From a virus: a DNA stretch of 32,827 nucleotides. Within the stretch, counting starts at the first letter, position 1. Every line of letters begins with the position of its first letter. The DNA lies in the UHGV virus genome UHGV-1342882, one strand, 5' to 3'. Shown here one piece after another: positions 858-32,652 of the stretch. The notes beneath the pieces are model-generated. The model was not told the DNA's origin, ran no database searches, and was given only the letters and a program-made list of their open reading frames with translations. The position numbers were made by a program, and so were the translations under genes.

Positions 858-944
858 GCTGAAAAACATAACCCATAAAATGCTAGCTGTACCAGGAACC
901 ACCTCCTTAGCCTGTGTAATCTCCCTTACACGGGCTTATTTTTT
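858..944 (+). ncRNA. cyaR: CyaR (RyeE) Hfq-dependent sRNA; its 3' terminator hairpin overlaps the phage att core
   Basis: Sequence gctgaaaaacataacccataaaatgctagctgtaccaggaaccacctccttagcctgtgtaatctcccttacacgggcttatttttt matches my memory of CyaR; hairpin ctgtgtaa/ttacacgg followed by T-tract. Ends are approximate and not computed. Confidence 0.55.
918..944. repeat. attL core; 27 bp identical to the reverse complement of the P2 att core (aatctcccttacacgggcttatttttt)
   Basis: 923..944 is repeated exactly at 32631..32652; recalled P2 core AAAAAATAAGCCCGTGTAAGGGAGATT. Confidence 0.8.
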
Positions 945-1012
945 GCCTGTAATCTACTGAAATAAATGGATTTATTTCTTACAATGTCCACACATTGACC
1001 ACATCAAACAAA

Positions 1013-1039
1013 CCCCGTCCACAAGGCGGGGTTTTCTTC
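1013..1039 (+). terminator. Rho-independent terminator (hairpin ccccgtc/ggcgggg followed by ttttcttc), likely insulating the prophage from host read-through
   Basis: 7-bp stem with 5-nt loop and T-tract, read directly from sequence. Confidence 0.5.
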
Positions 1040-1109
1040 AAAGGCAAACACGCTAATACTTGAAAGTTATCGCAACCTAAAAGGTTCATACTGCTATGGA
1101 GTTGGAAGC

Positions 1110-2075
1110 ATGAAGCTATACATCATCGGGAATGGGTTTGATCTGCATCACGAACTTGACACGAGCTATTTCTCATTTGGGGATTATCTTCGGAAGAAAG
1201 ATCGAGACATTTACGATCACTTGGTTGAGTTTATGGGATTTACTGACTTACCCCCTTCTCTTTCCGCAGTTGATAAGTCAAAACATTCTCTTTGGTCTGA
1301 TTTCGAAAACAGCTTAGCGGGTCTGGATACAGAGTCGGTGCTCGAAGAGTTTAGCTATCTTTTACCCCAAATTAGCAGCCCCGATTTTCGTGACAGGGAC
1401 TGGAACTCATTATCCATTGAAATGGAACGTATACTAGAAAATTTAACCGAGGGACTTTTAACACAATTCAAGTCATTTATATTGCAGGTTAACTACCCCG
1501 AACTTAATTTAAAAAAAAGATTGCGTATCGATTCTGATTCTATCTTTATCAGTTTTAATTACACTGACACTCTTCAGAAATATTATAGTATTGATGATAG
1601 ACAAATTTTATATATTCATGGGAAAGCATCATCAGATCAACAGTTGATTTTAGGTCATGGTATTGACCCTATCAACTTTGAAGAAAAGGAAGCAGTCCCG
1701 CCCGAAAATGCAACCGATGAAGAACTTGAAGAGTGGCGTCAGTGGATGGCTGATAATTACGATCACTCTTATGAAATGGGAAAGCAGACTATTAATAAAT
1801 ACTTCACTTCTTCTTTTAAGAATACTGAAAAAGTCATTGCTGACAGCGCTAAATTTTTTAAAAATCTCAGTAACGTAGACGAAATCATCATCATCGGCCA
1901 TTCGTTATCATCTGTAGATGTTCCCTACTTTTCTTTTATACATAGCATTGTTAGTAAAAATACGGAATGGATAGCCACCTATTATCAGGAAACTGAGCGT
2001 GAAGCACATCATACAACATTATGTGAGATTGGCATTAAATCTCCCAAACTGATTTCAGTAAGTAAACTTCTATAA
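1110..2075 (+). CDS. AbiH-like abortive infection protein (phage defense cargo)
   Basis: N-terminus MKLYIIGNGFDLHHELDTSYFSFGDYL matches the AbiH family signature as I recall it; AT-rich island; GGAG 8 nt upstream of ATG; lies between attL and the last tail gene. Confidence 0.6.
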   Translation: MKLYIIGNGFDLHHELDTSYFSFGDYLRKKDRDIYDHLVEFMGFTDLPPSLSAVDKSKHSLWSDFENSLAGLDTESVLEEFSYLLPQISSPDFRDRDWNSLSIEMERILENLTEGLLTQFKSFILQVNYPELNLKKRLRIDSDSIFISFNYTDTLQKYYSIDDRQILYIHGKASSDQQLILGHGIDPINFEEKEAVPPENATDEELEEWRQWMADNYDHSYEMGKQTINKYFTSSFKNTEKVIADSAKFFKNLSNVDEIIIIGHSLSSVDVPYFSFIHSIVSKNTEWIATYYQETEREAHHTTLCEIGIKSPKLISVSKLL

Positions 2076-2657
2076 ATAGAACAAAATATCACCCAGAGGG
2101 CGGGGGTTTTTATACGTTCCCTCCCCCTTAGCTAGAGATCCTTTTATCAAAACTTCGTGCATCATTTTGCAAAACCCAAATAAAAGCAAACTAGCCGCCA
2201 GCCCGCGCCGCACAAGGCTTCACAATATCCGCCCCCGAAAACCATCGGATACAACCGAATCATTTTGATCGTCACGGAAACTAAAACGATCCTTTTAAAA
2301 ACATCATGTTATCCAGTCGGTTAGCGACTGGCGACGCGGTGACTTTTGCAAAGTGCTGCAAATCTTTGCGCAGAGTGCAAACGCCCGCAGGATGCAAAAG
2401 CCCAGCAGCGGCGCAGGCTGGCGGGGTGCTTTGCACAAAATTTCTTTTGCAAAATTTTTATGATCCAAACTGCGCAGGCGGGTGCGGTGTAGCGCCGTTT
2501 CCGTCTTGGATCCGCTTCCGTCTGCCTGCTGTCGCTTACGCTGTGGGCCGCTGTTGAACAAACGAAAGAAAGGCCGCACGGTGGCGACCTTTAATATTTG
2601 CGCCTGCTGTGGCGCGTTCTGTGGTGTCTGGTGAGGTGTGCGGTAATGCCGTTTTTG

Positions 2658-4382
2658 TCAGGCTATCAGGGGACCGTATTTGCTTTTCAATGTACCGGTT
2701 TTAGTGGCCGTTGCGCTGAACTGCGCAGCCTGCCCGCTGGCCCCTGTGTTGGGGTGAGTATGTGACGCGGCAGTCTCTGCCAGTTCCCTCACCACGTCCA
2801 GGGTGTCGGTGAGTAGTGTCAGGACGTTAATCTCTTCGCTTCCCAGTTTTACCACCGGGGCAATCAGCTGTTGCGCCTGGGCCACACTTCGGCGGATACC
2901 GCTGATTTTCTCAGTCAGTGCGCCGCTGACGTTTGACGTGACATTCCCTTTCACGTCGTCTGTAACATCGCCCGCGACGTCCCGTTTTGCGTTCCGGCCA
3001 ACACTGACGGAATTGTCCTTGCTGCAGGTTACTGTCAGGTTGCCGGATGTGCCGATACTGTAATCACCCTCGCTGATATGGACCACCGCCCCGGCCAGAA
3101 GAGTGGCCGTGCCAAGCACGGTTGTTTTATCCGTTGCCTGGACCGTAGTTTCACGGACAACCACTTTGCGGATCTCTTCGTCGGTGGTGACTTCGCGCAT
3201 CATGGAGTTTTCGCGGATTGTCTGGTCCGTCTGGCGTTCCCAGTCTCCGGCAACCGTCACGCGCTGCGATACACCATCGCGCTGTTGCTGCAACTGCTCG
3301 CCGGGTTTAACCGCTGGCAGGTTATGACCCTCCGCCATAATCTGGCGCACGAAGGGCTTATCCTGCCGCCCCTCAGTGAACCCGATTTCAACCAGCGTGC
3401 CAGGGGGCGGAAACTGGAACATTCCCGACTCGCTGCCCGCCATTGGTACAGGTAGCGGAACGGCAGAATAAACCGGCGTATTTGCGGCTGGCTTGCCGTA
3501 TTCGTCAAGCAGCTGGAGATCCACGGCATAGCGCGGGCGGAATGGATCGGCAATATTACCCCCTGAAACATCCTCGCTTGGCGCTTCCACCCTGGCGAAT
3601 TTTGGAAGATGCAGGCCGCTTGCCAGCTCCGGGAATGCGTTTTCAATCTGCCGCTGAATGGGTGATTTTTGCAATGGCTGGCCGTTGGCTTTGTTGCGTG
3701 GCTGCCAGGTGATTGTCATGTCGTCGTTATTTAGCCGGACCTGGTTTAACCGCTGGCCGTTCACCTCAGCACCCGGGCGCAGGCTCTGAATCATCGGCAC
3801 AACCATTGAATTGCCGCCCGCCGATGCCTGGCTAAATTCGTGCGGGATCTCTACTGGTTTACCCGCAAAAAGACTGTGCTCAGCAGCACCGACGAAGACA
3901 TCCCCGTCCGGCAGCTGATACCAAAGATAATCCGTCACTGAAAATGCTCGGCCCAGACTGGCAAAAAGCTGGTAGCCCGTGCCGCTGTGCGTAAAGTGGG
4001 GGATCGGTTTATCTGCATAAGCAGCGCCGACCGGCGTTGTGACGGTCAGCCCGCTTTGCTCACTTATCCAGTCAGTAATCTGGCGCAACGTTGGATGCTG
4101 GAAAGAACACGGCCACAATTTATCAAAGATGCCGACCAGCTCACGCACGAACAACCGGCATGTTCCATTATCAGCAGGCTGTGACCGTTCGACGTATCCG
4201 GTAAACCAGCGCAGGACCAGACCATCATAACCAACATCGATACGCACCATTTTGCCGGTGTAATCTGTCTCTGTCCCCGCCGTAATAACCCCCCGACCGC
4301 ACGCGTTCAGCTCCAGCACGATATTGCAGTCAATCAGATGGACCGGATCAGAGGAAAGGTACAGGCGTTTAATTGGTTTCAT
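2658..4382 (-). CDS. Putative baseplate hub / central spike protein (gpD/gpV- or VgrG-like); terminal gene of the tail operon
   Basis: 574 aa; C-terminal half has short repetitive beta-strand-like segments (VTCSKDNSVSVG, VAGDVTDDVKGNVTSNVSG) and an HTHPNTG motif near the C-terminus; position at distal end of late operon. Weak, position-based call. Confidence 0.35.
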   Translation of the reverse strand: MKPIKRLYLSSDPVHLIDCNIVLELNACGRGVITAGTETDYTGKMVRIDVGYDGLVLRWFTGYVERSQPADNGTCRLFVRELVGIFDKLWPCSFQHPTLRQITDWISEQSGLTVTTPVGAAYADKPIPHFTHSGTGYQLFASLGRAFSVTDYLWYQLPDGDVFVGAAEHSLFAGKPVEIPHEFSQASAGGNSMVVPMIQSLRPGAEVNGQRLNQVRLNNDDMTITWQPRNKANGQPLQKSPIQRQIENAFPELASGLHLPKFARVEAPSEDVSGGNIADPFRPRYAVDLQLLDEYGKPAANTPVYSAVPLPVPMAGSESGMFQFPPPGTLVEIGFTEGRQDKPFVRQIMAEGHNLPAVKPGEQLQQQRDGVSQRVTVAGDWERQTDQTIRENSMMREVTTDEEIRKVVVRETTVQATDKTTVLGTATLLAGAVVHISEGDYSIGTSGNLTVTCSKDNSVSVGRNAKRDVAGDVTDDVKGNVTSNVSGALTEKISGIRRSVAQAQQLIAPVVKLGSEEINVLTLLTDTLDVVRELAETAASHTHPNTGASGQAAQFSATATKTGTLKSKYGPLIA

Positions 4383-4389: not shown

Positions 4390-4932
4390 TTACCCCAGCG
4401 CATCGTTGACCGGCTTTAAGACCTTTTCTTCAAACCAGCTCATTTTGTCGGCTGGTTCATCAGCACCGGCAGCCGGACCCGCGCCCTTTGCCCCTGTTTG
4501 CCTGGTGGTGGCCGTCGCGTTGCCTTTTCTGGCCTGTCGTTTTTCCGGGACGCTGCCTTTTTCACGCAGGGTGAAACTTACCTGCCAGGCAAGGCGATCC
4601 TCCTGCGGTACGGCATCAATCTGACCGGTGAACGTGGCTTCACGAAGGTTGATAGCCGTTGCCGTCGCATTGGCAACACGGTACTTTTTCAGTGCTCCGC
4701 TGGCTTCGGTTGCGGATGCCAGCTGAAAAAGCCGCTGTAAAACGGCTTCATCGTCGAATGTCACCAGACCCGACACGCGCAGCTCTTTGGCCTTGATACC
4801 CTGTTCAGCATTGGCCGTGCTCGATGTCTGGCCCGACTGGTCCTTCTCCTGAAACTGCATGGAAGGTGAAACCAGCATGTTCTGCATGGCGATCCCTTCA
4901 CCATCAAGCGCGAGTAATGCGGTCTGGCTCAT
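4390..4932 (-). CDS. Hypothetical tail/baseplate-associated protein
   Basis: 180-aa ORF within the tail operon, co-oriented and tightly packed; no family recognised. Confidence 0.4.
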   Translation of the reverse strand: MSQTALLALDGEGIAMQNMLVSPSMQFQEKDQSGQTSSTANAEQGIKAKELRVSGLVTFDDEAVLQRLFQLASATEASGALKKYRVANATATAINLREATFTGQIDAVPQEDRLAWQVSFTLREKGSVPEKRQARKGNATATTRQTGAKGAGPAAGADEPADKMSWFEEKVLKPVNDALG

Positions 4933-5674
4933 GTAGCATCCTCCCTAAGTCAGATAACGAATCCCCGATAAACATCATCGCGGCGGTATGCACTGCCGTT
5001 GTTTGCGGGATGCCTTTCAGCAATTCAGCGGCAGCAACGGCATAACTCCCGCTGTAACTGAATGAAAAAATATTCGCACTGGCGGCTTTCAGGTCGTCCA
5101 GTCCCTGGCTGAGTGAGGACAGCAAACCGGCCCGTTCCTGAATAAATCCCGTCACCTGGTTTTTTAGATCTGTTGTGGTGGTACTGACTGCGGCGGCCAG
5201 CTGCGCGGCGGCAACACGCCGGGCATTCAGCGCCAGCCGGTTGGTTGAGACTGATAACGGCGCACTGGCTGGCAATACATCGGCTTTAACCGGCAACTGC
5301 ATTTTTACCGTGCTGAGTTCTGCGGCGGCTGCCGCCATGCGGCTTACCTGCGTAAAAACGGGGGCAGGAAATACGGTGGACAGTTTATTCAGCCCCTGCA
5401 TAAATGCGTCGTGGGTATTCTCCGCTACCATCATGACGATAACATCGCCGCTACCGCCACCGGATAACAGCTTTTTAGCAAGATATCCCATCGCATTGGC
5501 CGGACTAAGATAAGCGCCTGAATCCGTGGACTGCCCCAGCCCATACACCCACGGATGGGCCGGAATGATTGAACAGGATAATGCCGACATATCATCGGCA
5601 ATCCTTATAATTGAATCACGCCACATCGGCAGGTTGCTCCGGCCAGACAATATCTGTCGCTGAGTCGGTATCAA
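4904..5674 (-). CDS. Hypothetical tail-associated protein (start uncertain; alternative starts near 5626 or 5590)
   Basis: 256-aa ORF, Ala/Ser-rich; longest-ORF start overlaps the tail fibre assembly gene by 59 nt, so the true start is probably internal. Confidence 0.4.
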   Translation of the reverse strand: MIPTQRQILSGRSNLPMWRDSIIRIADDMSALSCSIIPAHPWVYGLGQSTDSGAYLSPANAMGYLAKKLLSGGGSGDVIVMMVAENTHDAFMQGLNKLSTVFPAPVFTQVSRMAAAAAELSTVKMQLPVKADVLPASAPLSVSTNRLALNARRVAAAQLAAAVSTTTTDLKNQVTGFIQERAGLLSSLSQGLDDLKAASANIFSFSYSGSYAVAAAELLKGIPQTTAVHTAAMMFIGDSLSDLGRMLHEPDRITRA

Positions 5675-6053
5675 TGCGCATCAGCGATACCCTGTATTCA
5701 CGCCAGGCAGTAAAAAGCGCTTTTTCTGCGTCCGTCGCTTTACCCAGATCAACGGCATCCTGCAAAGGTGCCAGGATATTGCTGGCCGCAGCCATCAGGG
5801 CAGATTTTTGCGTCTCAGCCCTTACGATTGATTCTTCTTCAGAAAGCGGTAGGGGGTCAGAAAGGACCGGCTGACCATATTCATTTGGGATGATGATACG
5901 CCCTGAACTCTTATCAATCAGATACTGATACCAGCGCTCAGAAATCAACAAGGCGTCAGCAGGCCAGCCCAGTTCCGATTTTTCATAATCTGGCTTCAAC
6001 GAAAGGAAGAAAAATCCATTCATGGAAGCACTGTAATAATATTGCTCATCCAT
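5616..6053 (-). CDS. Tail fibre assembly protein (Tfa / gpG-like chaperone)
   Basis: 145 aa directly downstream of the tail fibre gene; N-terminus MDEQYYYSASMNGFF is typical of enterobacterial phage Tfa proteins as I recall. Confidence 0.7.
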   Translation of the reverse strand: MDEQYYYSASMNGFFFLSLKPDYEKSELGWPADALLISERWYQYLIDKSSGRIIIPNEYGQPVLSDPLPLSEEESIVRAETQKSALMAAASNILAPLQDAVDLGKATDAEKALFTAWREYRVSLMRIDTDSATDIVWPEQPADVA

Positions 6054-6056
6054 TTT

Positions 6057-7990: not shown

Positions 7991-8590
7991 CTACTTCAAA
8001 CTTGCGCTGTATGTTATTTGGGGCTGGTTATTCACATCACTCAGGGTGGCATAACAGCAAATATATTCCCCCTGATACCAGCCAATATTGATATTCAGTG
8101 GCAGGGATGTGATCACTTCAAACTGGTAACGGCGGCATGTACGCCCATATTTACGGATAATTTCCAGCAGGAGATCGCCATTTTCCGCAATCTGACTATT
8201 TGTCACCCGAACGACAATCACATCCCAGTCGAGTCCGTCCTGCCGTTCCAGTAATTCAACATAACCAATCCCCAGTCGCTCAAAAATGGCAATAAAGCCC
8301 GCCACCTCTCCGGCCTGCTGCGCATTGATAAATGCGTAGCTCACCCGTTTGCGGAAGATGTCGAGCGGCTCCCCCTTAAACCGATCGATATCGCGTTCCC
8401 AGGCAATCAGGTTTAACAGCGGTTCGGGGCAGACCAGCGGGTCAAACTGCTTTAACGGCCAGGAGATCCACCCGTACACCTGCGACCAGAACTTCACGCA
8501 GGCCCGCAGCAGCCTGGCGGGGTCGCCTTTGTTCAGCCACGACGGCAATTTCAGACCGGCAAGCAACTTTGAAAACTCAGTCATTCTCAA
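7991..8590 (-). CDS. Baseplate/tail protein (gpI-like, DUF2313-type)
   Basis: 199 aa immediately downstream of the baseplate J-like gene and upstream of the tail fibre; call is mainly positional. Confidence 0.5.
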   Translation of the reverse strand: MRMTEFSKLLAGLKLPSWLNKGDPARLLRACVKFWSQVYGWISWPLKQFDPLVCPEPLLNLIAWERDIDRFKGEPLDIFRKRVSYAFINAQQAGEVAGFIAIFERLGIGYVELLERQDGLDWDVIVVRVTNSQIAENGDLLLEIIRKYGRTCRRYQFEVITSLPLNINIGWYQGEYICCYATLSDVNNQPQITYSASLK

Positions 8591-17826: not shown

Positions 17827-17828
17827 TT

Positions 17829-18851: not shown

Positions 18852-18879
18852 AATCTTTTATTCCTGAAAAGAATGGCTG

Positions 18880-23329: not shown

Positions 23330-23332
23330 ATT

Positions 23333-24995: not shown

Positions 24996-25050
24996 TATTG
25001 CTCCATCAAAATCTAGCTTACCTGAAAGATAATCGGTGGTAGGTGAAATA

Positions 25051-25087
25051 CCATAGCATTATTACAGTTTCTATCTAGCAGAAACAA
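25051..25087 (-). promoter_or_regulatory. Candidate sigma70 promoter of the DUF262-HEPN operon (-35 TTGTTT at 25082..25087, 17-nt spacer, -10 TAATAA at 25059..25064)
   Basis: Hexamers and spacing read directly from the reverse-complemented sequence; not experimentally supported. Confidence 0.35.
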
Positions 25088-25217
25088 TACCTTTTGAGGC
25101 ATATTGAACATAGCATTCCTTTCAAGTGGCTAAATTGACTACCGGGCTCTTTGCCGCCCGCACCCGCAGAATCACGCCAACCGACGCAACCAGTTGCGAC
25201 GGCCAGCGCGATTGCAT

Positions 25218-27851
25218 TCATTCTTTTGGGAGACGACCTTCCACACCCGCCAGCATTTTTTGATACTCCCCGACCGGATCAAAGCGCAGGCGCGTGGCAT
25301 CAATGCCGTGGTTATCCCGCAGGCGTTCCCATAATTTATTTATCGTCCGTGCATCATCGGGTAATTGACGTGTTATCAACTGGCCGTCAGCGCTGGCCTG
25401 ATAAACTTTGCCGTCTATCTCCAGACGGCTCCCCATTAACAGCGAAACGGCCTGAATCTCTGAAATCTCAACCGAATACAACGTCGCATCAGCCAGCAGG
25501 CTGGCAATCGCAGGGGCAAGAGCCGCCCGTCTGGCTTTTTCAGCCTCCGATCTGGCCTCGGTTTTTTCCACGGCAGAACGCCAGGCGACATCTAATTCGC
25601 TGCTTGGCTCATAAGGTGATCCGCTTTGCTGCCTTTTGAATGGTGTTTCACGTAGTCGCCGCATCAATTTGCGCCGCGTTGGCTGGTCCATATTTTCAAA
25701 ATCGACGATTTCCTCTTCTGATTCTTCTGTAATACCCTCCACACCAAGCGAAAAATCGGTGATTTTTTCGTCTTCCGTAGAGTTATTGACAGAACTCCAA
25801 GCGCCGCCGGTTGGCGACGGCAAAAGGTCAACCCCCAAACCGGGGCCGTTTCTGGCCCCGGTGGCGGCTTTGGATTTGGCGCGGATTTTCCATTTAACCA
25901 GACGGGTGCTAATACGGGAGGCATCACCCAGACGCGGCGACCAGACCCCGAAAACCTTTTCGGGGATCTCACAATAAGCATTCATTTCATCAGCTGGCTG
26001 ATAGGCCAGACGGACGACATAGTTTTCACGCGGGATCAAAACACCCCCCTGGCGGATGATGTAGGTAGCAAAGCACCCGACATCGGCAGCGGCGCAAACC
26101 GCATCCATTGCAGGATCCACAAGCAACGGCGCACCGCGCTTGAAGGTATTGTCAATTTTCTGGCGGGTCGTGATCTGATTGCTCAGTTTGCGCAGCTCGC
26201 GGTAAACCGATATGGGCGGCTGTCCGATGGGCTGAAACTGGCGGATGCGGTGAAGTGACGCCCAGGCCATTGCATATTTGGCTGTTTCATTCAGCGGCTT
26301 GCCGCTTTCGTCGTCCAGTTCACCGGCCAGCGCGTGGCCGTCGATATTCTTCGAAATGTATTTCGCGATATACGCCGTTGCTGACCCTTTCCGTGGGTCC
26401 ATTTTTTTTGACTTGAAACGAGCACCGGTATTGCGGCCCAGCTCGTCGCGGTCTTCCGCAATGAAGTAGGCGCGAAGGATCGCAACCGTAGCTTTAACTT
26501 GCTCTTGTGGCATAAATAGCAATGCGTGCCAGTGTGGTGTCCCATCATGATGCGGCTCAGCGACGCGGAAGCCGTAAGGGCGCAAATCTTCGCGTTTCAG
26601 TTTGGCGGTTGCCCGGTTCCATACTCGGCATAAATAGCGCTGCGCCTGGGCGACGGTGGAATGATTCCATTTGGCGTTATGGTGGCCGGACGCAATATTA
26701 CTGTGATATTTCGACGGGCAAGTGATGGTCAGGAAGATGCCAACATCGCCGCGACTTTGGGCGACAAGCTCAACCCCAGCCATTCGGGCCATAAGCTCAT
26801 GGCGACGAATAGCCGGGTTAGACGTGGATTTATTAATCATTTCCTCAAGCGACGAAACGTTGCCGTATTCGTCTACCAGTTCATGACTTTTGAAAAAATC
26901 CCGGTTTTTACGGCGCTGTTCCTGCCACTCGATCAGGCTGGAAACGCTAACGTAGGCGTGCGCTTTTTTATTTACCGCGCCAACAGCACGCAGCTGGTTC
27001 TCGCGCCAGTCACAACGCAAGCGCCAGATTTTACGCCCCCACCAGTCAGGCGAAGCCATACGCAAAATGGCCGTGCATATGCGCTCGCGTTCCCACGGCG
27101 CATACCATGCAGGCGGTACAATGCGAAGCGCCAGCATTTCGCGGCCCAGGTGGTAATAAAGCCAGTCCAATTCTTCGACGTTCATGTCTGAAACATTCCG
27201 TCCCAGGGCTTCGCATTCCGTCCCCAGCATTTCAGCCATGCGGCTGGCGATCTCATTAGCGGCGCTCAGTGCTTCCCGCTTTGTGAAATCAGCCAGACGT
27301 TGCCAGCGCCCGAACCAGTACGCAGCCAGTTCGCCGGTGATATCAGGCGAAACACCTTGCCTTGTGCGTACAACATCAAGACGCAGCAATGATTTTTTCA
27401 CGGTCCCCATAAGAAAATCATTGGTGTGTCTGGTTTCACGGTTGACCCGTAACCACTCAATTTTTTTACGCCAGACTTCACGAATGAAGAACGGCTCTGA
27501 TAATAAACGCGCTTCGACACCCTCCGGCGTATTGACCCAGGCTGCCGTCGTAGCTTTAGCGGCTTCCATTTCCTGCCGGATTATATTTTGATGGGCGGCC
27601 AGTAGCAGGCCGCACGGTTCGTGCCTGTCCAGCGCCTGGATAAGCGCGTTACGGTCCCGAACCTCGTCGGGGTTGTAACCGGCGCGTTTGAAGATGTGAT
27701 CGATGTGTTTTTTTACGGCTGGATGATGTACCACCGCCCCTGCAAGCGGGGCGATTTTTTTCGGTTCGTAGGTGTACAGGCCAATAGCTGGGCGCGGCGC
27801 GTTCCAGGGCCATGCAAAAGCGGTGTCAGACATTGGATGCCCCGCTATCAC
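25218..27851 (-). CDS. Replication initiation protein, P2 gpA family (rolling-circle nickase); possible start at MSDTAF (27833)
   Basis: 877 aa; contains TAYIAKYISKN with paired Tyr residues characteristic of gpA-type initiators; located in the early operon downstream of cox. Confidence 0.8.
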   Translation of the reverse strand: MIAGHPMSDTAFAWPWNAPRPAIGLYTYEPKKIAPLAGAVVHHPAVKKHIDHIFKRAGYNPDEVRDRNALIQALDRHEPCGLLLAAHQNIIRQEMEAAKATTAAWVNTPEGVEARLLSEPFFIREVWRKKIEWLRVNRETRHTNDFLMGTVKKSLLRLDVVRTRQGVSPDITGELAAYWFGRWQRLADFTKREALSAANEIASRMAEMLGTECEALGRNVSDMNVEELDWLYYHLGREMLALRIVPPAWYAPWERERICTAILRMASPDWWGRKIWRLRCDWRENQLRAVGAVNKKAHAYVSVSSLIEWQEQRRKNRDFFKSHELVDEYGNVSSLEEMINKSTSNPAIRRHELMARMAGVELVAQSRGDVGIFLTITCPSKYHSNIASGHHNAKWNHSTVAQAQRYLCRVWNRATAKLKREDLRPYGFRVAEPHHDGTPHWHALLFMPQEQVKATVAILRAYFIAEDRDELGRNTGARFKSKKMDPRKGSATAYIAKYISKNIDGHALAGELDDESGKPLNETAKYAMAWASLHRIRQFQPIGQPPISVYRELRKLSNQITTRQKIDNTFKRGAPLLVDPAMDAVCAAADVGCFATYIIRQGGVLIPRENYVVRLAYQPADEMNAYCEIPEKVFGVWSPRLGDASRISTRLVKWKIRAKSKAATGARNGPGLGVDLLPSPTGGAWSSVNNSTEDEKITDFSLGVEGITEESEEEIVDFENMDQPTRRKLMRRLRETPFKRQQSGSPYEPSSELDVAWRSAVEKTEARSEAEKARRAALAPAIASLLADATLYSVEISEIQAVSLLMGSRLEIDGKVYQASADGQLITRQLPDDARTINKLWERLRDNHGIDATRLRFDPVGEYQKMLAGVEGRLPKE

Positions 27852-28047
27852 CCTCCCGCTGGGAATGCTTTTCGATTAGCGGGTCGAGTAACACATTGAA
27901 AGAAATCAACAGCGTGTTTGCGGCTTCACTTCCGGCGAGAACACCCGCCAACGTTGCGTGTGCAAGGGCCAGTGTTTTGGCTTCGTTAAGCGCAGCCAGT
28001 GCGCCGCGCTGGTATTCCGAAAGACCGTTATTAATTTTGCTAGCCAT
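27826..28047 (-). CDS. Hypothetical early-operon protein
   Basis: 73-aa ORF, ATGA-coupled to the upstream dam gene and overlapping the start of A. Confidence 0.4.
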   Translation of the reverse strand: MASKINNGLSEYQRGALAALNEAKTLALAHATLAGVLAGSEAANTLLISFNVLLDPLIEKHSQREGDSGASNV

Positions 28048-29012
28048 CAGAAGAGCACCTCGTCAGCCGCTCCACCCCACACGGAATAACCAGCACAAGG
28101 GCCGCAGTCAGGACAGCACCCACCACCGGCACGGCGACAAGTCGCGCAGACTTTGAGGACGCCGATCACTTCACTGGCGGCCCCTCTGGTAATGGCGTTC
28201 GCGCTGACAGAACGGTTAACGATAATTTCCTGGAAGTTGAAAGAGCGATAAATCTCGCGGGTGGCTGGGGTGTCGCTATTAGACAGGATCACCGGCGAAC
28301 CAGTAAGGCGGTTAATATCCAGCTGAGCGGCAGCTAACTGGCGATGCTCTTTAATCCCAAACGGGGCGGTGTGGTATTGGGTGAAATTAGCGGTTTCGCT
28401 TGTTGGCAGGTATGGCGGATCGCAATAGATAACCGCGTCACTACCAATCATGATTTTTAACGTGCTCTGGAAATCGCAGCACACGAAAATAGCTTTCGTG
28501 TCGTTAGCTTTTTCAGAGAATAAACGGATTTGTTCTTCCGGGAAGTAAGGCGGGGTTTTGTGACGCCCAAAGGGAACGTTATATCCACCCTGTTGGTTGT
28601 AGCGTACTACGCCGTTATATCCGTGACGGTTCAGGTAAAGAAATTGTGCTGCACGAAGAATCTTGCCCGCGTCCGGCCCATCTTCAAACACACTGCGCAA
28701 TGACAGTAGGTCACGGGCGCGGGCGTTGAAATCATCGCGGATCCACTTATAGCCGTCTTTATCGCCGTACACTTTAAACAGTGGGCGAGCAGCGTCGATC
28801 ACCGCATCAGGCCAGCGGGTTATCTGGCGATACAGGTTAATTAAATCTGGGTTGATATCACCCAGGATATAACGGCGATATTCAGTATTGAGGAAAACAG
28901 AAGCACCGCCGACAAACGGTTCCACCAGGCAATCGGCTTTCGGCAGAATCGGCAGCAAATCAGGCATAACGCGGCCTTTACCACCGGGCCATTTAACGAG
29001 AGATCGAATCAT
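28047..29012 (-). CDS. dam: DNA adenine methyltransferase (Dam-type N6-adenine MTase) with Cys-rich C-terminal tail
   Basis: Motifs VKWPGGKGRVMPDLLPILP, FVGGASVFLN and catalytic CDPPYLP; C-terminus VCATCRRAGGGCCPDCGPCAGYS. Confidence 0.85.
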   Translation of the reverse strand: MIRSLVKWPGGKGRVMPDLLPILPKADCLVEPFVGGASVFLNTEYRRYILGDINPDLINLYRQITRWPDAVIDAARPLFKVYGDKDGYKWIRDDFNARARDLLSLRSVFEDGPDAGKILRAAQFLYLNRHGYNGVVRYNQQGGYNVPFGRHKTPPYFPEEQIRLFSEKANDTKAIFVCCDFQSTLKIMIGSDAVIYCDPPYLPTSETANFTQYHTAPFGIKEHRQLAAAQLDINRLTGSPVILSNSDTPATREIYRSFNFQEIIVNRSVSANAITRGAASEVIGVLKVCATCRRAGGGCCPDCGPCAGYSVWGGAADEVLF

Positions 29013-29082
29013 TTTTACTTTCTCCAGGGTGCAAGAAGCCCGACGCGTTAGCGCCTGTTTCTTTTTTGTGGGTAGTTAGTTG

Positions 29083-29478
29083 TTAATTTACTGCGTTATC
29101 TGCCGCGGGTGGTTTGTCTCGTATCGCCTGAATTTCGGCGCGTGGTGCGGCGTAGTCCTCAAATTCCCACGGCATTGATGCTGCAAATTCGGAAAGGCGT
29201 TTAATGCCCATCAAAAGGCACGTTTGCTCCTTTTCGGTTAGATTTTCGTAAGTACAACCCAGCTGTTTGGCGGTCAGCTTCGGCATTCCGACTATGTATC
29301 TGGACGCATCGTTTGCCAGGATGAAAATCACCTTTTTGCAGGCATGATCCAGGCGGTTAAAACGGGTTGCAGTGTCATTCACGCGTGAGGCGTTCAAACT
29401 TGCTTGCAGCCGCGCCCGTTGCTCTAAGAACTGGCGGCGACCTGGCTGTTGTTCTGTCTTATCCATCAACATAACCAC
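29083..29478 (-). CDS. Hypothetical early-operon protein
   Basis: 131-aa ORF co-oriented with the early operon; no family recognised. Confidence 0.4.
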   Translation of the reverse strand: MVMLMDKTEQQPGRRQFLEQRARLQASLNASRVNDTATRFNRLDHACKKVIFILANDASRYIVGMPKLTAKQLGCTYENLTEKEQTCLLMGIKRLSEFAASMPWEFEDYAAPRAEIQAIRDKPPAADNAVN

Positions 29479-29487
29479 CTCCCCGAA

Positions 29488-29781
29488 CTACGCAAAGATG
29501 CCCATTAAGCGGGAAAACCAGCGGCGCTTATTACGCGGGCGCGACATGAACGGTACACGGCAGTTTTTAACAAATTGAACATCTACCGCTTTCGGCTGGA
29601 AGAACCTCCCGTCCGGGGTTTCAATCCAGCCACGTTGATGCTGACGGTGGGTGATCTGCTGGCCGTGCGTGAGCAGACTGGCGAGTGAAGGGCATTGTGT
29701 TAATTCCATGTTGATCTCCGTCATATTGAAAAGATGCCGGGATACGACCCCACGCCCGGCGCGTGTTTCCTGTGATAACAT
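29488..29781 (-). CDS. Hypothetical early-operon protein (start may be internal)
   Basis: 97-aa basic ORF; no family recognised. Confidence 0.3.
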   Translation of the reverse strand: MLSQETRAGRGVVSRHLFNMTEINMELTQCPSLASLLTHGQQITHRQHQRGWIETPDGRFFQPKAVDVQFVKNCRVPFMSRPRNKRRWFSRLMGIFA

Positions 29782-29847
29782 CGCTATGCCTGTGTAACTT
29801 TGAGCGGTGAATCAGGCATAACAATCACCAACACAGAAGGAGTTGTA

Positions 29848-30327
29848 ATGAAATTCAATGTATTTTTTAAAAAAGACCACGGATCACACTGGGTGCTTTC
29901 CGATGGTGCCCCCCTCTTTGAAAGTCCACTATTTGAAACAAGACCTAAAGCCATTGATGACCTTGAGAAATTTGTAGGCCTTATGGAATCGCCAATCTTT
30001 ATTAAGGCTGGTGACGATATTAATTCTGGCGATACAGAAAACTGTCCATCTGTAGTTATTTCTTTAAAACAGCATGAATCGCTATGGGGCTGGGAATTAT
30101 TTATCTCAAAAAATGGACAACTGTCTAAAGTTACCGAAAGTTCAGGAAATGGCTTTGACTCATTAGAATTAGCAAAGCAAAATGCCCAGTTTTTCCTTAA
30201 TGCCATTATCGACGCTCCTATTCTGGATCAAGCCGATGTCGCTATCCCCGGCATGCACTTCTCAAAATCTTTCGAGGAAACGCACCACATTGGTGACACT
30301 CACCCATCTAGTAAATGGTTCAAATAA
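29848..30327 (+). CDS. YegP-like (DUF1508) tandem-repeat protein; inverted moron inside the early operon
   Basis: Start MKFNVFF preceded by AAGGAG; two repeats resembling the YegP pattern (F..K.NG ... S ... A ..), e.g. WELFISKNGQLSKVTESSGNGFDSLELAKQNAQFFLNAI; AT-rich; opposite strand to neighbours. Confidence 0.45.
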   Translation: MKFNVFFKKDHGSHWVLSDGAPLFESPLFETRPKAIDDLEKFVGLMESPIFIKAGDDINSGDTENCPSVVISLKQHESLWGWELFISKNGQLSKVTESSGNGFDSLELAKQNAQFFLNAIIDAPILDQADVAIPGMHFSKSFEETHHIGDTHPSSKWFK

Positions 30328-30331
30328 TCCA

Positions 30332-30688
30332 TCACTGTGGCGTTATCGTTTTTCTTGTGCGAGGTGGTACATCTCGCACTGTTTCTTCATCAACAATCAA
30401 CTCATAAACTCTGATGCTGTTATCACCTTTTGATACGTCATCAAATACCTGAAAAAGAAAACTCATGAATTGCTCATAAGTGACGCTGGGTTCAACATAC
30501 CCACCAGTAACCTCAATTAATGGTGTTAGTCCTGAATTATCTGCTAACGAAACGCAGTCCAACTTATCCAAACGGAAAAAGTAATTACCGCAAGGTGTTC
30601 TTTTATCCTTAATCCGTATAAACACATTTGATAACGCTGTATGACTATCTGAGAGTTTAAAGATTTTTGCCGTGTCCATTTTATTCAA
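30332..30688 (-). CDS. Hypothetical protein immediately downstream of cox (AT-rich cargo ORF)
   Basis: 118-aa ORF in an AT-rich segment; no family recognised. Confidence 0.4.
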   Translation of the reverse strand: MNKMDTAKIFKLSDSHTALSNVFIRIKDKRTPCGNYFFRLDKLDCVSLADNSGLTPLIEVTGGYVEPSVTYEQFMSFLFQVFDDVSKGDNSIRVYELIVDEETVRDVPPRTRKTITPQ

Positions 30689-30701: not shown

Positions 30702-30977
30702 TTATGATGGATTGCCCAGACCCAACCACATTAACCACCCTTCCCTAATTTCCTTCGGGCGGCTCTCATACGCCATTTTCATGCCGTTGTTCCAGGCTGG
30801 AAGATAGACCCAGTACTCACCTGCCCGCCCGGAAGTTGATTGCGGATCGGTCATTTCAACTACAGGTAGCTTTCCTTTTTCAATCATCCCCTTCACCGCT
30901 GCCGGTGTTTTACCAATGAGTTTTGCGAACTCCTGATATGGGACGGCATCTGTGCTTAACGCGATCTGTTTAACCAT
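30702..30977 (-). CDS. cox: Cox (excisionase / Pc repressor)
   Basis: 91 aa; near-identical over most of its length to the P2 Cox sequence I recall (…DAVPYQEFAKLIGK…GKLPVVEMTDPQSTSGRAGEYWVYLPAWNNG…ESRPKEIREGWLMWLGLG). Confidence 0.9.
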   Translation of the reverse strand: MVKQIALSTDAVPYQEFAKLIGKTPAAVKGMIEKGKLPVVEMTDPQSTSGRAGEYWVYLPAWNNGMKMAYESRPKEIREGWLMWLGLGNPS

Positions 30978-31093
30978 TTAAGGCCCTCACAAGTTTAAGA
31001 ATCGTCACCAATGGCTTATAGTTGCTTTTGATGTTCATTTCTAAACATCAAACAGTCTACATCTAAATCAAATAGTATTGAGATCTAAACACC
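30978..31093. promoter_or_regulatory. Immunity switch region (divergent Pe/Pc promoters) with direct repeats TCTAAAcATCAAA (31040..31052), TCTAAAtCAAA (31062..31072) and TCTAAAcacc (31084..31093)
   Basis: Intergenic region between divergent cox and C genes; direct repeats read from sequence. P2 C repressor is known to bind direct repeats. Confidence 0.5.
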
Positions 31094-31393
31094 ATGTCAA
31101 ACGCCTTAAACGAGAAAATTGTACTCATCAGAAAGTCTGAGTATCTCAGCAGACAGCAACTTGCTGATTTAACAGGCATTCCCTATGGCACTTTAAGTTA
31201 TTACGAAAGTGGTCGTTCTACACCGCCCACGGACGTAATGATGAGGATTTTGCAAATGCCCCAGTTCAGCAAATACACGTTGTGGTTTATGACCGATCAG
31301 GTTGCTCCCGAAGCCGGTCAGATAGCACCGGCCCTCGCACACTTTGGGCAAGATGTAACAACATCGCAGCACTCAGACCAAAAGATTGGTTAA
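31094..31393 (+). CDS. C: Immunity repressor C
   Basis: 99 aa; very similar to the P2 C sequence I recall (MSN…EKIVL…RKSEYLSRQQLADLTG…PYGTLSYYESGRSTPPTDVMM…). Confidence 0.9.
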   Translation: MSNALNEKIVLIRKSEYLSRQQLADLTGIPYGTLSYYESGRSTPPTDVMMRILQMPQFSKYTLWFMTDQVAPEAGQIAPALAHFGQDVTTSQHSDQKIG

Positions 31394-31538
31394 CCATTCA
31401 CCAGGCGCATCTTTATTACAAAATTTGTTTACTTGTTGCCAAATACAACAAGCACAACAATTTTGTGAAATCTAAGCGCAAGGGAAAATTAACAGCAGCA
31501 AAGAAAACTCAACCTAGCACCATTCATTTGGGGGTCTT

Positions 31539-32546
31539 ATGACAATTAAGAAACTCGATGATGGTCGTTATGAAGTGGATATCAGACCTGCAGGGCGCAA
31601 CGGAAAGCGCATCCGCAGGAAATTTGACAAGAAAAGTGAGGCTGTAGCTTTTGAGAAACACACTCAATACAACCATCACGATAAAGAATGGCTAGCTAAA
31701 CCGACAGATAAGCGGCATCTGTCTGAATTAACAAAAGTCTGGTGGGATCTGAAAGGCAAGCATGAAGAACACGGAAAATCCAATTTGGGTAAGATTGAAA
31801 TCTTTACCCGGATCACTGATGACCCTTGCGCGTTCCAGATAACCAAAGCGCTTATTAGCCAGTACAGCATGACTCGCAGAGGGCAAGGCATAAAACCGGC
31901 CAGTATTAACCGCGACCTTACCTGCCTGAGTGGTATGTTTACTGCGCTAATTGATGCGGAACTGTTTTTTGGCGAACACCCTTTCAGAGGGATGAAAAAG
32001 CTCAAGGAGCAGAAACCAGAAACAGGCTATCTGACGCAGGAAGAAATAACATTGTTACTTGCCAATCTTGACGGGGACAACAAGAAAATCGCGATCCTCT
32101 GTTTAAGTACCGGCGCTCGATGGGGTGAAGCCGCGAAACTGAAAGCTGAGAACGTAATACAGAATCGGGTGACGTTCGTTAAAACAAAGACGAACAAACC
32201 GCGCACAGTCCCTATCTCTGAGGAAGTTGCTGTAATGATTGCGGGTAAAGGTTATCTGTTCCCTGATGCCTCATATCCGAAGTTCAGGCGAACAATGAAA
32301 GATGTAAAACCAGATCTACCGGACGGGCAAGCAACTCACGCATTGCGTCACAGTTTTGCTACCCACTTTATGATTAACGGCGGGAGTATCATCACCCTGC
32401 AGAGAATACTGGGACATTCACGCATAGAGCAGACAATGGTCTATGCGCACTTTGCCCCGGAGTATCTTCAGGATGCTGTTTCACTCAATCCGCTACGTGG
32501 TGGCGTTGACTCCATGAGTGTCCACACTGTGTCCACAGTAGGGTAG
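31539..32546 (+). CDS. int: Tyrosine integrase, P2 Int family
   Basis: 335 aa; strong similarity to the P2 Int sequence I recall (…IKKLDDGRYEVDIRP…GRNGKRIRRKFDKKSEAVAFEK…HALRHSFATHFMINGGSIITLQRILGH…RIEQTMVYAHFAPEYLQDA); adjacent to attR. Confidence 0.9.
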   Translation: MTIKKLDDGRYEVDIRPAGRNGKRIRRKFDKKSEAVAFEKHTQYNHHDKEWLAKPTDKRHLSELTKVWWDLKGKHEEHGKSNLGKIEIFTRITDDPCAFQITKALISQYSMTRRGQGIKPASINRDLTCLSGMFTALIDAELFFGEHPFRGMKKLKEQKPETGYLTQEEITLLLANLDGDNKKIAILCLSTGARWGEAAKLKAENVIQNRVTFVKTKTNKPRTVPISEEVAVMIAGKGYLFPDASYPKFRRTMKDVKPDLPDGQATHALRHSFATHFMINGGSIITLQRILGHSRIEQTMVYAHFAPEYLQDAVSLNPLRGGVDSMSVHTVSTVG

Positions 32547-32554
32547 TTTATTAT

Positions 32555-32607
32555 GGCTTTCAGTGGTCTTGCGTGCCGCGCAAACCCGCATTGCACCGCT
32601 GAAAGCC
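32555..32607 (+). other. Imperfect 12-bp inverted repeat (ggctttcagtgg / ccgctgaaagcc) just downstream of int; possible terminator or att arm element
   Basis: Read from sequence; 11 of 12 positions complementary, about 29-nt spacer; no clear T-tract. Confidence 0.3.
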
Positions 32608-32630
32608 CATGTTACCTACCCTGAAAAACG

Positions 32631-32652
32631 CCCTTACACGGGCTTATTTTTT
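32631..32652. repeat. attR core; exact 22-bp direct repeat of 923..944 (cccttacacgggcttatttttt)
   Basis: Exact repeat; left flank (aaaacg) differs from the attL flank (taatct), consistent with a phage-derived arm on the int side. Confidence 0.8.

Follow-up and report, generated by a model that had tools for sequence, protein, structure and literature searches.

HP1-like viruses carry their capsid genes in the P2 order and tail genes without similarity to those of P2 (PMC2771037), and reports of this difference between HP1 and P2 tails date from 2009 and 2023 (PMC2771037; PMC10612066). Irrigatiovirus is listed in the HP1 group (PMC10612066, Table 2). The Irrigatiovirus phage SI7 and its relatives are plaque isolates described without imaging, with the morphotype given as 'unclassified' (PMC6783827). 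Moreover, a P2-type cassette on an HP1-type chassis is already known: PhiECO4, from E. coli E22, has a P2-type regulatory region and the P2 att site together with HP1-cluster late genes (Nilsson et al. 2011; PMC3448106).

Here we analysed a stretch of viral DNA of 32,827 nucleotides (the window), which holds an element of 31.7 kb. Our results suggest, with a probability of about 0.9, that this is a prophage of the HP1 subgroup of the P2 family, located at cyaR, with a P2-type int/immunity cassette, the ancestral HP1 tail and two defence slots. It appears to be an intact E. coli prophage of a kind already described. An earlier note on the window had proposed a mosaic, in which P2-type lysogeny, replication and head genes were joined to a non-P2, Mu-like contractile tail.

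Table 1. Features of the prophage and its flanks (positions in the window)
Feature	Position	Strand	Evidence
cyaR (CyaR/RyeE sRNA), host gene; 3' end is the attachment site	856-941	+	Rfam RF00112, 100.7 bits, full length
attR core	918-944		27-bp direct repeat, P2 attP core
Pair of P2-type Int arm-site octamers, TGTCCACA and TGACCACA	985-1003	-	TGTGGWCA match near attR core
AbiH-family abortive-infection gene	1110-2075	+	Pfam AbiH 7.9e-62; PADLOC AbiH 1.3e-29; GC 0.38
Predicted cos	2478-2492		GCGGGTGCGGTGTAG, identical to 15-nt repeat at both ESSI-2 genome-record ends
HP1 orf35-like baseplate protein, probable hub/spike	2658-4382	-	41% HP1 orf35, full length
HP1 ORF34-family baseplate protein	4390-4932	-	Pfam PF25759 HP1_ORF34 7.5e-54
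HP1 orf33-like, conserved position	4904-5674	-	28% HP1 orf33; phrog_1677 7.8e-78
Tail fibre assembly protein	5616-6053	-	Pfam Caudo_TAP; 42% P2 G, 39% Mu U
Tail fibre	6057-7979	-	Pfam Phage_tail_fib, Phage_fiber_2
I-like baseplate wedge	7991-8590	-	Pfam Tail_P2_I (weak); 50% HP1 orf30
J-like baseplate wedge	8577-9761	-	Pfam Baseplate_J; 49% HP1 orf29
DUF2590 baseplate wedge protein	9754-10089	-	Pfam DUF2590; 64% HP1 orf28
Tape measure	10086-12194	-	Pfam PhageMin_Tail; 32% HP1 orf27; hhalign 99% to P2 T profile
Predicted -1 frameshift extension of chaperone	12196-12384	-	Pfam DUF6890
Tail assembly chaperone	12384-12653	-	Pfam Phage_TAC_10
Rz-like spanin	12756-13139	-	phrog_1152 spanin
M15 endolysin	13139-13477	-	Pfam Peptidase_M15_4
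Holin	13464-13775	-	Pfam Phage_holin_3_2
HP1-type tail tube	13780-14235	-	Pfam Phage_HP1_Orf24 2.2e-51; 52% HP1 orf24
HP1-type tail sheath (putative)	14239-15381	-	Pfam DUF2586 1.6e-132; phrog_907 'tail sheath'; 52% HP1 orf23
S-like neck	15384-16079	-	Pfam Phage_tail_S; hhalign 96% to P2 S
R-like neck	16076-16552	-	Pfam P2_Phage_GpR; hhalign 68% to P2 R
L head completion	16549-17082	-	Pfam Phage_GPL; hhalign 99% to P2 L
Head/packaging block: M, N, O (-); P, Q (+)	17125-22988		Pfam Phage_term_smal, Phage_cap_P2, Phage_GPO, Terminase_6N/6C/5, Phage_portal
Ogr/Delta-type zinc-finger late activator	22985-23302	+	Pfam Ogr_Delta 2.4e-17; 53% K139 homologue, same position
RiboL-PSP HEPN protein	23333-23953	-	Pfam HEPN PF18735 6.6e-21
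DUF262/GmrSD_N protein	23946-24995	-	PADLOC NsnA 1.6e-66, PD-T4-2_A 1.3e-47; Pfam GmrSD_N
Replication initiator, gpA family	25218-27851	-	Pfam Phage_GPA 3.4e-106; 93% SI7, 35-38% P2/186 A
Early-operon accessory genes, including four unknown ORFs	27826-30688	-	Pfam
Dam methylase	28047-29012	-	Pfam MethyltransfD12 2.1e-57
Fil-like	29488-29781	-	Pfam Phage_186_Fil 8.9e-12
cox	30702-30977	-	80% identical to P2 Cox
Pe/Pc region with C operators	about 31061-31090		Promoter/operator comparison with P2
C repressor	31094-31393	+	84% identical to P2 C
P2-type integrase	31539-32546	+	87% P2 Int, 98.5% HYM1 prophage Int, 51% SI7 Int
attL core	32626-32652		Second copy of 27-bp repeat

Integration site and immunity cassette

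The element is bounded by two 27-bp direct copies of the P2 att core, identical at 25 of 27 positions, whose outer edges (918 and 32652) are exactly the limits that had been given for it. A 28-nt probe spanning the P2 attP core aligned at 917-944 with 1 mismatch, and positions 918-1037 are 79.5% identical to P2 24263-24382. The CyaR match of the Rfam search overlaps attR, the insertion point being the 3' end of cyaR beside yegQ (trhP), which is the locI of P2. The counterpart locus of E. coli K-12 reads trhP(yegQ)-cyaR-cryptic prophage PR-X, and PR-X is a P2 remnant. Using the Int arm-site consensus taken from PMC3448106, five TGTGGWCA matches were found in the window, four of which adjoin the att cores: the pair near attR and the octamers at 32519 and 32530 on the attL side.

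All the features of the P2-type integration/immunity module were present: a short C, the att core, TGTGGACA arm repeats and the operators. The Pe -35 and O1 (GTTTAGAT) are the same as in P2; the Pe -10 (TACTAT vs TAGTAT in P2) and O2 (ATTTAGAT) are each one base off, and the operators are direct repeats 22 bp apart, as in P2. Residues 1-50 of C equal those of P2 at 45 of 50 positions. The earlier note had called A, Q, P, O, N, M and L, as well as int, C and cox, P2-like in sequence. Strong likeness is limited to Int, C and Cox, with amino acid identities of 87, 84 and 80% to P2 (51, 46 and 43% to SI7); the other seven reach no more than 23-41% to P2. The HYM1 prophage, which has the canonical P2 architecture and occupies the same locus, encodes Int, C and Cox proteins 98.5, 89 and 85% identical to those of the element, and its similarity begins abruptly at 30721.

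These alignments indicate that the genuine mosaic joint is the 2-kb attP-int-C-cox cassette, which is of P2 type and is common to canonical P2-architecture prophages at the cyaR locus, as in HYM1. A recombination joint does exist, as had been proposed, but not between head and tail. As judged from its sequence, the cassette gives an HP1-type chassis the integration site of P2 and probably also its immunity specificity. Note that C identity within the known immunity groups is at least 95% (PMC3448106), so with a C at 84% an immunity identical to that of P2 is not assured.

Head, tail and packaging genes

The order int, C, cox, then A, then, after cargo and ogr, Q and P / O, N, M and L is present as previously described; its head part is that of the P2 family, with the Pfam families, including Phage_GPL, in order. 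The head block is 96-99% identical to SI7, 33-52% to HP1/K139 and 23-41% to P2, and every head gene is nearer to HP1, K139, phiO18P and ESSI-2 (33-61%) than to P2.

The sheath, tube and baseplate proteins had been reported to be unlike those of P2, and indeed tblastn gave no match in P2, 186 or phiCTX for the sheath, tube, tape measure and baseplate proteins, the wedge genes at 7991-10089 included, so the tail module differs in type from that of P2. The HP1-specific Pfam families DUF2586, Phage_HP1_Orf24, HP1_ORF34 and DUF2590 are present, and the tail proteins are 27-64% identical to, and collinear with, those of HP1, K139, phiO18P and ESSI-2. The succession of sheath, tube, chaperone, tape measure, baseplate and fibre was seen as described; however, it is not Mu-like but corresponds gene for gene to HP1, K139 and ESSI-2, running R, S, sheath, tube, lysis, chaperone, tape measure and orf28-35 as in HP1. 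The order is exactly HP1-type and not Mu-type because of three features that had been overlooked: the lysis cassette (12756-13775) between tube and chaperone, in the position it has in HP1, K139 and ESSI-2, a trio of baseplate genes that follows the fibre genes, and ogr beside Q.

We consider it very improbable that the element is a recent recombinant between a P2 lysogeny/replication/head module and the tail of a non-P2, Mu-like myovirus. The lack of tblastn matches for the tail proteins in P2, 186 and phiCTX and the resemblance of the sheath-to-fibre order to Mu would fit such an origin, as would the J-like protein, which in shallow profiles is nearer to Mu gp47 (94-95%) than to P2 J (5-13%). 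But the head genes are themselves of the HP1 group, in Mu no lysis cassette follows the tube and the three baseplate genes downstream of the fibre are lacking, the Mu proteins that match the window are fragments of fibre and assembly proteins only, and the tape measure, like R, S and L, matches P2 profiles. Moreover, head and tail similarity drop together across SI7, ESSI-2, HP1, phiO18P and K139. In a per-protein table against six reference phages, head and tail scored 1.97 and 1.96 bits per residue with SI7, 1.02 and 1.12 with ESSI-2, 0.69 and 0.67 with HP1, 0.42 and 0.01 with P2, and 0 and 0 with Mu. Since head and tail diverge in step, there is no head/tail junction in this lineage, and the proposed P2 head on a Mu-like tail gives way to a head and a tail that both belong to the HP1 subgroup. 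By this comparison the 'foreign tail' is the normal tail of that subgroup and not a new mosaic, a P2-family head with a non-P2 tail being ancestral to the HP1 subgroup as a whole.

Whether this architecture arose when the tail module was replaced in ancient times, at the base of the subgroup, is evenly balanced; such an event, which would make the genome a mosaic at very great time depth only, would be background to, and compatible with, the HP1-subgroup reading. The P2 head is still detectable by the scores above and the P2 tail is not, the HP1 and P2 groups part much deeper in trees of the sheath and of gpJ than in that of the portal, and one clade has been proposed to have gained a much older tail-module paralogue (PMC10612066). 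Quicker evolution of the tail genes is, however, an alternative, the methods used give neither dating nor polarity, and profile comparison by hhalign ties the sheath, tube and hub to neither P2 nor Mu, its links to the P2 tail and neck being R, S, L and T, with a weak one for I.

The product of 14239-15381 can be assigned as a putative sheath from its family annotation, its synteny and, weakly, its fold: its AF2 model is poor (pLDDT 47), and the top five PDB matches of this pLDDT-47 model are contractile or injection-system sheaths (8q1i, 8fop, 9qgp, 6rao; E 4e-6 to 4e-4, TM 0.25-0.39). HHpred has been reported to align HP1-group with P2 sheaths (PMC10612066). A -1 frameshift is predicted for the chaperone, which has a slippery A_AAA_AAC two codons ahead of its stop and a -1 frame open into DUF6890. 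The orf35-like protein is 63% identical to that of ESSI-2 and matches phrog_2258 'baseplate protein' (5.5e-275) and, weakly, a gp5 C-terminal repeat. The fibre's N-terminal half is 85% identical to SI7, and a stretch of about 100 aa is 72% identical to P2 H and 69% to 186 K; on this pattern, the fibre and assembly gene pair (5616-7979) is a mosaic host-range cassette.

The predicted cos, which resembles the phiO18P cos, lies in the interval that separates attR from the final tail gene, a position that fits the HP1 group because there cos adjoins attP (PMC2771037). The terminal 15-mer of ESSI-2 has its single occurrence in the window at this site, and no P2 cos-like sequence was found in the window.

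Defence cargo

The AbiH gene is low-GC cargo between the predicted cos and attR. It is also found in RM13322 (96% amino acid identity), other E. coli relatives align across its span, and it is absent from SI7 by genome comparison. The second cargo, the DUF262 and HEPN genes (GC 0.34-0.37), fills the slot between A and ogr, as it does in an IMG/VR locus (L026), and in 9 of 9 distant genomes the two genes are neighbours. PD-T4-2 is made up of DUF262 and PF18735 HEPN domains (PMC10952713), and the adjacent pair that defines this two-gene system is found here. However, the HEPN protein gave no match to the PADLOC PD-T4-2_B model and the DUF262 protein scores higher with NsnA than with PD-T4-2_A, and the pair may be regarded as a PD-T4-2 relative by architecture only.

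A survey of the A-ogr slot in relatives revealed at least nine cargo types; the A-to-portal defence hotspot of P2 is kept and filled with different cargo. The earlier note's view of preserved hotspots with other cargo thus stands for this site. It does not for the Z/fun hotspot, which cannot be kept since the HP1-type gene order has no G/FI junction, its location in P2. As had been stated, no homologues of P2 old, tin and Z/fun are present in the window.

Proposed workings and comparison with known systems

By homology with P2 and HP1, the short C repressor, acting on two GTTTAGAT-type operators, would hold the early promoter off, and Cox would flip the switch and direct excision. A gpA-type nickase would initiate rolling-circle replication. 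The Ogr-type zinc-finger protein, encoded beside the portal gene and directly downstream of Q, would activate the late genes; a P2-type Ogr binding motif (TGT-N12-ACA) was not found in the O/P intergenic region. Terminase (P and M) would cleave the predicted cos, beside attP as in the HP1 group, the virion would combine a P2-family capsid with an HP1-type contractile tail, and the P2-type integrase would insert the prophage at the 3' end of cyaR.

It is unlikely that the element is defective or cryptic and no longer forms phage, perhaps after domestication as a tailocin or for the sake of its defence genes. The SOS response does not induce P2-type switches, a search of the prophage gave no homologue of tum, cI or cII, and two defence loci are carried. 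Yet the genes of the viable phage SI7 from terminase to the last baseplate gene are all full length at 88-100% identity, bar the swapped fibre tip, with no frameshifts; int, cox and A are intact, as are the two att cores, the arm sites and the predicted cos; and, with head genes present, the element is not a tailocin.

Beyond the intact HP1-subgroup prophage that we favour, a further and rather doubtful proposal is that of a natural hybrid with consequences for satellites, in which HP1-type virion and late genes stand under a P2-type switch. Given this switch, the operators and the att site, the lysogen might be cross-immune with P2; it might also engage in cross-talk with P4-like satellites, which read the Cox and Ogr signals of P2, and its capsid would perhaps be refractory to P4 remodelling. 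If this were true, the hybrid would be a natural tool to separate the P2 functions that satellites need.

The comparisons place the element in the Peduoviridae, HP1 subgroup, as an apparently complete temperate myovirus prophage, and the confirmed matches are far beyond chance (E-values down to 0). The P2 subgroup (Peduovirus, Eganvirus etc.) was rejected: the tail genes do not form the two blocks of P2 (V W J I H G, followed by FI FII E T U D), and X and the lysis genes do not follow L as in P2. Close homology and synteny with P2 throughout were not seen, only 14 of 42 P2 proteins matching the window and the tail order being different; by tblastn, P2 X, V, W, J, I, FI, FII, E, T, U, D, B, ogr, old, tin and fun have no homologue in the window. 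Shared with P2 are the att core, arm sites, Int, C, Cox, Pe with its operators, locI integration and the A-to-portal hotspot and, at family level, A, the portal, terminase and capsid as well as L, R, S and T. In contrast to P2, the tail is a single block, and ogr and the predicted cos are placed elsewhere. Mu-like phages (Muvirus) were also rejected: the window proteins have no Mu match except short fibre and assembly stretches, and at profile level the J-like protein alone matches Mu (gp47).

HP1 and K139 share the late-gene order from Q to orf35, lysis genes between tube and chaperone, cos (predicted here) beside attP, and an ogr-like gene beside Q, annotated in K139 and in HP1 an unannotated tblastn match; 21 of 41 HP1 proteins match the window (23-64% identity). 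They differ in their CI/CII (186-type) switch and att sites, and the early regions are unrelated. Gene order is identical in phiO18P. The Cronobacter phage ESSI-2 (Seongnamvirus) has the same architecture, late proteins of 35-86% identity and an identical 15-nt terminal (cos) sequence, but a 186-type CI/CII/Apl switch and an empty A-ogr slot.

The Salmonella phages SI7, SW3 and SW5 (Peduoviridae, Irrigatiovirus; NC_049460) have the same gene order and align with about 77% of the prophage at about 95% nucleotide identity (95.4% over 82% of 918-25000), with, for SI7, structural, lysis, A, Dam and ogr proteins 88-100% identical. SI7, whose host is Salmonella, differs in the int/immunity cassette, the fibre tip and the assembly protein, carries a methyltransferase in its A-ogr slot and lacks AbiH. 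The ICTV genus criterion is about 70% nucleotide similarity over the genome. The blastn segments against SI7 (about 24.3 kb of 31.7 kb at 94-95.5%) give about 73%, which makes the prophage a borderline congener of SI7 (Irrigatiovirus) and, given the cassette and cargo differences, would leave the relationship below species level.

Finally, annotated prophages with 96% nucleotide identity (RM13322 type) occur in 18-21 complete E. coli genomes. RM13322 shares 96% nucleotide identity over the chassis, an identical Int, the same locus and the same AbiH; it differs at 30900-31300 of the window (54-76% identical), in C (77%) and in the operators. Its hotspot is occupied by a 925-aa unknown protein, and it contains an IS3 insertion. 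We infer that PhiECO4 is of this RM13322 type.

Head, tail and gene order

Our results place both the head and the tail genes of this prophage within the HP1 subgroup of the Peduoviridae. The earlier note had proposed P2-type lysogeny, replication and head genes combined with a non-P2 contractile tail in Mu-like gene order; what it observed was largely correct, but its interpretation misplaced the mosaic joint. Every window protein was searched by tblastn against SI7, ESSI-2, HP1, phiO18P, K139, P2, 186, phiCTX and Mu, with reciprocal searches from P2 and HP1. The sheath, tube and baseplate proteins are indeed unlike those of P2: fibre and assembly fragments apart, the tail proteins had no match in P2, 186, phiCTX or Mu. 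Their identity to HP1-group proteins is 27-64%, with the same gene order, and the head proteins share 23-41% identity with P2 versus 33-61% with the HP1 group. Thus, the head genes are not particularly P2-like. A relationship to Mu was rejected, since the search with all window proteins returned only fragments of the fibre and assembly proteins and the tail order is that of the HP1 group.

In support of this, the summed bits per residue for head and tail, respectively, were 1.97 and 1.96 for SI7, 1.02 and 1.12 for ESSI-2, 0.69 and 0.67 for HP1, 0.78 and 0.66 for phiO18P, 0.76 and 0.57 for K139, 0.42 and 0.01 for P2, 0.43 and 0.01 for 186, 0.41 and 0.01 for phiCTX, and 0 and 0 for Mu. Since both values fall together from SI7 through the other HP1-group phages, head and tail have travelled jointly within the HP1 subgroup; the joint is the attP-int-C-cox cassette and not the head/tail boundary. 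In the reciprocal searches, 14 of 42 P2 proteins matched the window versus 21 of 41 from HP1. Note that P2 old, tin and fun had no match, in agreement with the reported absence of old, tin and Z/fun.

Local hhalign comparisons, with 5-sequence profiles and then up to 80 sequences, linked L (99% probability), S (96%), R (68-76%) and the tape measure (to T, 99%) with P2. The I-like protein was weakly linked to P2 I, and the J-like protein matched Mu gp47 at 94-95%, better than P2 J. These profiles are shallow (Neff about 2; the P2-side IMG/VR loci are all at least 94% identical), and finding nothing above 4% probability for the sheath, tube, DUF2590 and orf33-35 against P2 or Mu is a sensitivity-limited result, not proof of non-homology. 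HHpred is reported to connect the sheath, tube, gpU and spike proteins of the HP1 group with their P2 counterparts, at identities near 13% (PMC10612066). The sheath structure model was poor (pLDDT 47, from an alignment of 27 homologues that are 76-99% identical); its best PDB matches in Foldseek are contractile sheaths, which lends weak support to such a fold for the DUF2586 protein. A PDB sequence search with the sheath and orf35 found no solved relative.

Gene content was taken from Pfam, PHROGs and PADLOC scans. Read from attL, the order is int, C, cox, unknown early genes with a Fil-like protein and a Dam methylase, gpA, the low-GC DUF262+HEPN pair, an Ogr/Delta zinc-finger gene, Q and P. 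The opposite strand continues with O, N, M and L, the R-like and S-like genes, the sheath gene (DUF2586) and the tube gene (Phage_HP1_Orf24). Next come the holin, M15 endolysin and spanin genes, the chaperone gene, whose -1 frame holds DUF6890, and the genes for the tape measure, DUF2590, J-like and I-like proteins, then those for the fibre, its assembly protein and homologues of HP1 orf33, orf34 (Pfam HP1_ORF34) and orf35. A non-coding stretch of 580 bp and the AbiH gene lead to attR. The ogr-like gene lies 3' of Q as in K139, phiO18P and ESSI-2, and lysis genes between tube and chaperone are an HP1-group trait.

Two codons ahead of the chaperone stop there is a slippery heptamer, and reading in the -1 frame remains open into the DUF6890 ORF. 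A chaperone-DUF6890 fusion by -1 frameshift, analogous to P2 E/E+E', is thus predicted. Both termini of the Cronobacter phage ESSI-2 record carry the 15-nt GCGGGTGCGGTGTAG, which occurs once in the window, between the last tail gene and attR. It resembles the phiO18P cos and sits in the 580-bp non-coding region, which is conserved with SI7; this is the likely cohesive-end site, and no P2-like cos is present in the window. The fibre is mosaic, with an SI7-like N-terminal half (85%) and a stretch of about 100 aa resembling P2 H (72% identity) and 186 K (69%); the identity of its assembly protein is 51% to that of SI7 and close to 40% to both P2 G and Mu U. Judged from these similarities, the region looks like a host-range cassette exchange. 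The P2 Ogr motif TGT-N12-ACA was not found between the divergent O and P genes, and its counts across the window were at chance. A promoter and terminator scan of 19800-25400 gave nothing above shuffles, and no sigma-70-like promoter stood out in the O/P interval.

Features of the window and their positions
Feature	Position	Remark
cyaR	856-941	100.7 bits (Rfam)
27-bp repeat, attR copy	918-944	outer edge is the prophage end
27-bp repeat, attL copy	32626-32652	outer edge is the prophage end
Similarity to the P arm of P2	918-1037	79.5% (DNA)
AbiH-family abortive-infection gene	1110-2075	GC 0.38
Likely cohesive-end site	2478-2492	GCGGGTGCGGTGTAG
Fibre and assembly genes	5616-7979
Slippery heptamer, chaperone	12384-12400	minus strand; A_AAA_AAC
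O/P intergenic region	19942-20118	divergent genes
DUF262+HEPN pair	23333-24995	low GC
Alignment to P2 24355-26267	30715-32653	73.6% (DNA)
Divergence from RM13322	30900-31300	cox 5' end, operators, C N-terminus

Integration site and immunity cassette

The prophage edges given in the earlier note, 918 and 32652, proved to be the outer edges of a 27-bp direct att repeat. Both copies match the P2 attP core (1 and 2 mismatches to a 28-nt probe spanning it) and are flanked by P2-type Int arm octamers. The 3' end of yegQ/trhP and then the sRNA gene cyaR lie 5' of 918, and the Rfam match places the att core at the 3' end of this sRNA. As cyaR ends inside the attR core (the two together span 856-944), the CyaR 3' end and terminator are supplied in the lysogen by the prophage-borne core. 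E. coli K-12 carries a P2 remnant at the same spot, the cryptic prophage PR-X (ogrK, yegZ), and the window flanks align to K-12 on either side of it. Thus, the core match and the flank alignment place a 31.7-kb prophage in the P2 locI site.

Compared with P2, the window's Int, C and Cox show 87%, 84% and 80% identity, versus 51%, 46% and 43% with SI7. At 95% identity or more, the cassette was found in only 21 E. coli genomes. In the same cyaR/yegR-side locus, E. coli HYM1 (NZ_CP141765; locus L012, 1-21800) has a prophage of canonical P2 architecture (X, lysozyme, lysB/C, R, S, V, W, J and others), with Int, C and Cox 98.5%, 89% and 85% identical to the window's. The similarity starts sharply at 30721, and all other genes are as distant as those of P2. 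The A-to-portal slot of the HYM1 prophage holds a DUF3696 protein and a hypothetical protein.

The related prophage of E. coli RM13322, which has the same HP1-type structural chassis, diverges from the window only in one interval of the cassette (54-76% identity), with flanks at 96-100%. The first 50 C residues equal P2 at 45 positions in the window versus 30 in RM13322, and this pattern suggests an immunity swap within one chassis. The Pe -35 hexamer and operator O1 (GTTTAGAT) are unchanged from P2, one base is changed in the -10 hexamer and one in O2 (ATTTAGAT), and the O1-O2 spacing is 22 bp as in P2. No tum, cI or cII was found in the window. With P2-like Int, C, Cox, operators and arm sites and without those three genes, the chassis carries a P2-type cassette, which probably confers P2-like immunity and a non-SOS switch; cross-immunity with P2 is possible on the same sequence grounds.

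Cargo slots

The earlier note had proposed that the hotspots are kept and filled with other cargo. This held for the A-to-portal slot, which carries the DUF262+HEPN pair, but not for the Z/fun position of P2, which has no equivalent in the window's gene order. The A-to-portal slot is the gpA-gpQ hotspot of P2-like phages, which had already been described, in 2022 and 2026 (PMC9122126; PMC13586616). Among Irrigatiovirus-like IMG/VR loci, the interval between gpA and ogr is 130-404 bp long when empty and can exceed 2 kb, and our survey of relatives revealed at least 9 cargo types: a methyltransferase, a KAP NTPase (PDC-S20), an AAA_13 protein (PDC-S06), an SMC-like ATPase, an ApeA-like HEPN protein, a MazF-like toxin, three distinct unknown proteins (two from IMG/VR loci, one of 925 aa from RM13322), and the window's own pair, present again in one IMG/VR locus (L026) at 99% and 97% identity. 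Large, low-GC hotspot proteins of 925 aa (RM13322; locus L002, 35775-38552), 608 aa (locus L041, 2186-4012) and 344 aa (locus L043, 1013-2047) had no Pfam or PADLOC match and are candidate uncharacterised defence genes.

The window's pair joins DUF262/GmrSD_N with a RiboL-PSP HEPN protein in a PD-T4-2-like architecture. Both genes are adjacent in 9/9 distant bacterial genomes (51-85% identity), and the pair had no megablast match in 5,426 complete E. coli genomes and none in phage records. The AbiH gene lies between the predicted cos and attR; it is 96% identical (aa) in RM13322, other E. coli relatives align across its span, and SI7 is without it. Its position may represent a further cargo slot that only this architecture has.

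Relatives and known systems

Across 82% of positions 918-25000, the identity to the Salmonella phage isolates SI7, SW3 and SW5 is 95.4%; these phages were originally reported as a new cluster that encodes C and Cox and whose morphotype was left unclassified (PMC6783827); SI7 is now classified in the Peduoviridae, genus Irrigatiovirus. A 96%-identical prophage occupies the same locus in 18 of the 5,426 E. coli genomes, RM13322 among them. The HP1-type sheath was found in 76 phage records, all of the HP1 group, and in 528 IMG/VR stretches and 1,533 protein clusters.

The window thus offers a clean, well-delimited case of an attP-int-C-cox cassette that moves between chassis of the P2 and HP1 types at a single chromosomal site, and adds one uncommon cargo, DUF262+HEPN, and a testable prediction of P2 cross-immunity. 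Its importance for discovery is little: this is an ordinary prophage, apparently intact, of a kind already described. HP1-like viruses have six capsid genes in P2 order (Lavigne et al. 2009, PMC2771037), and Irrigatiovirus has been assigned to the HP1 group in a study which proposes that a divergent tail module was acquired long ago (PMC10612066); the HP1/P2 tail dichotomy was already in print in 2009 and 2023, and the genus already defined. P2-type regulatory regions on HP1-type chassis in E. coli prophages have been known since 2011: PhiECO4 combines a P2-type regulatory region and the P2 attachment site with HP1-cluster late genes, and Nilsson et al. (2011, PMC3448106) inferred that the regulatory and structural regions had recombined. 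Together with the HP1-group literature, PhiECO4 makes the architecture of the window one that was already known.
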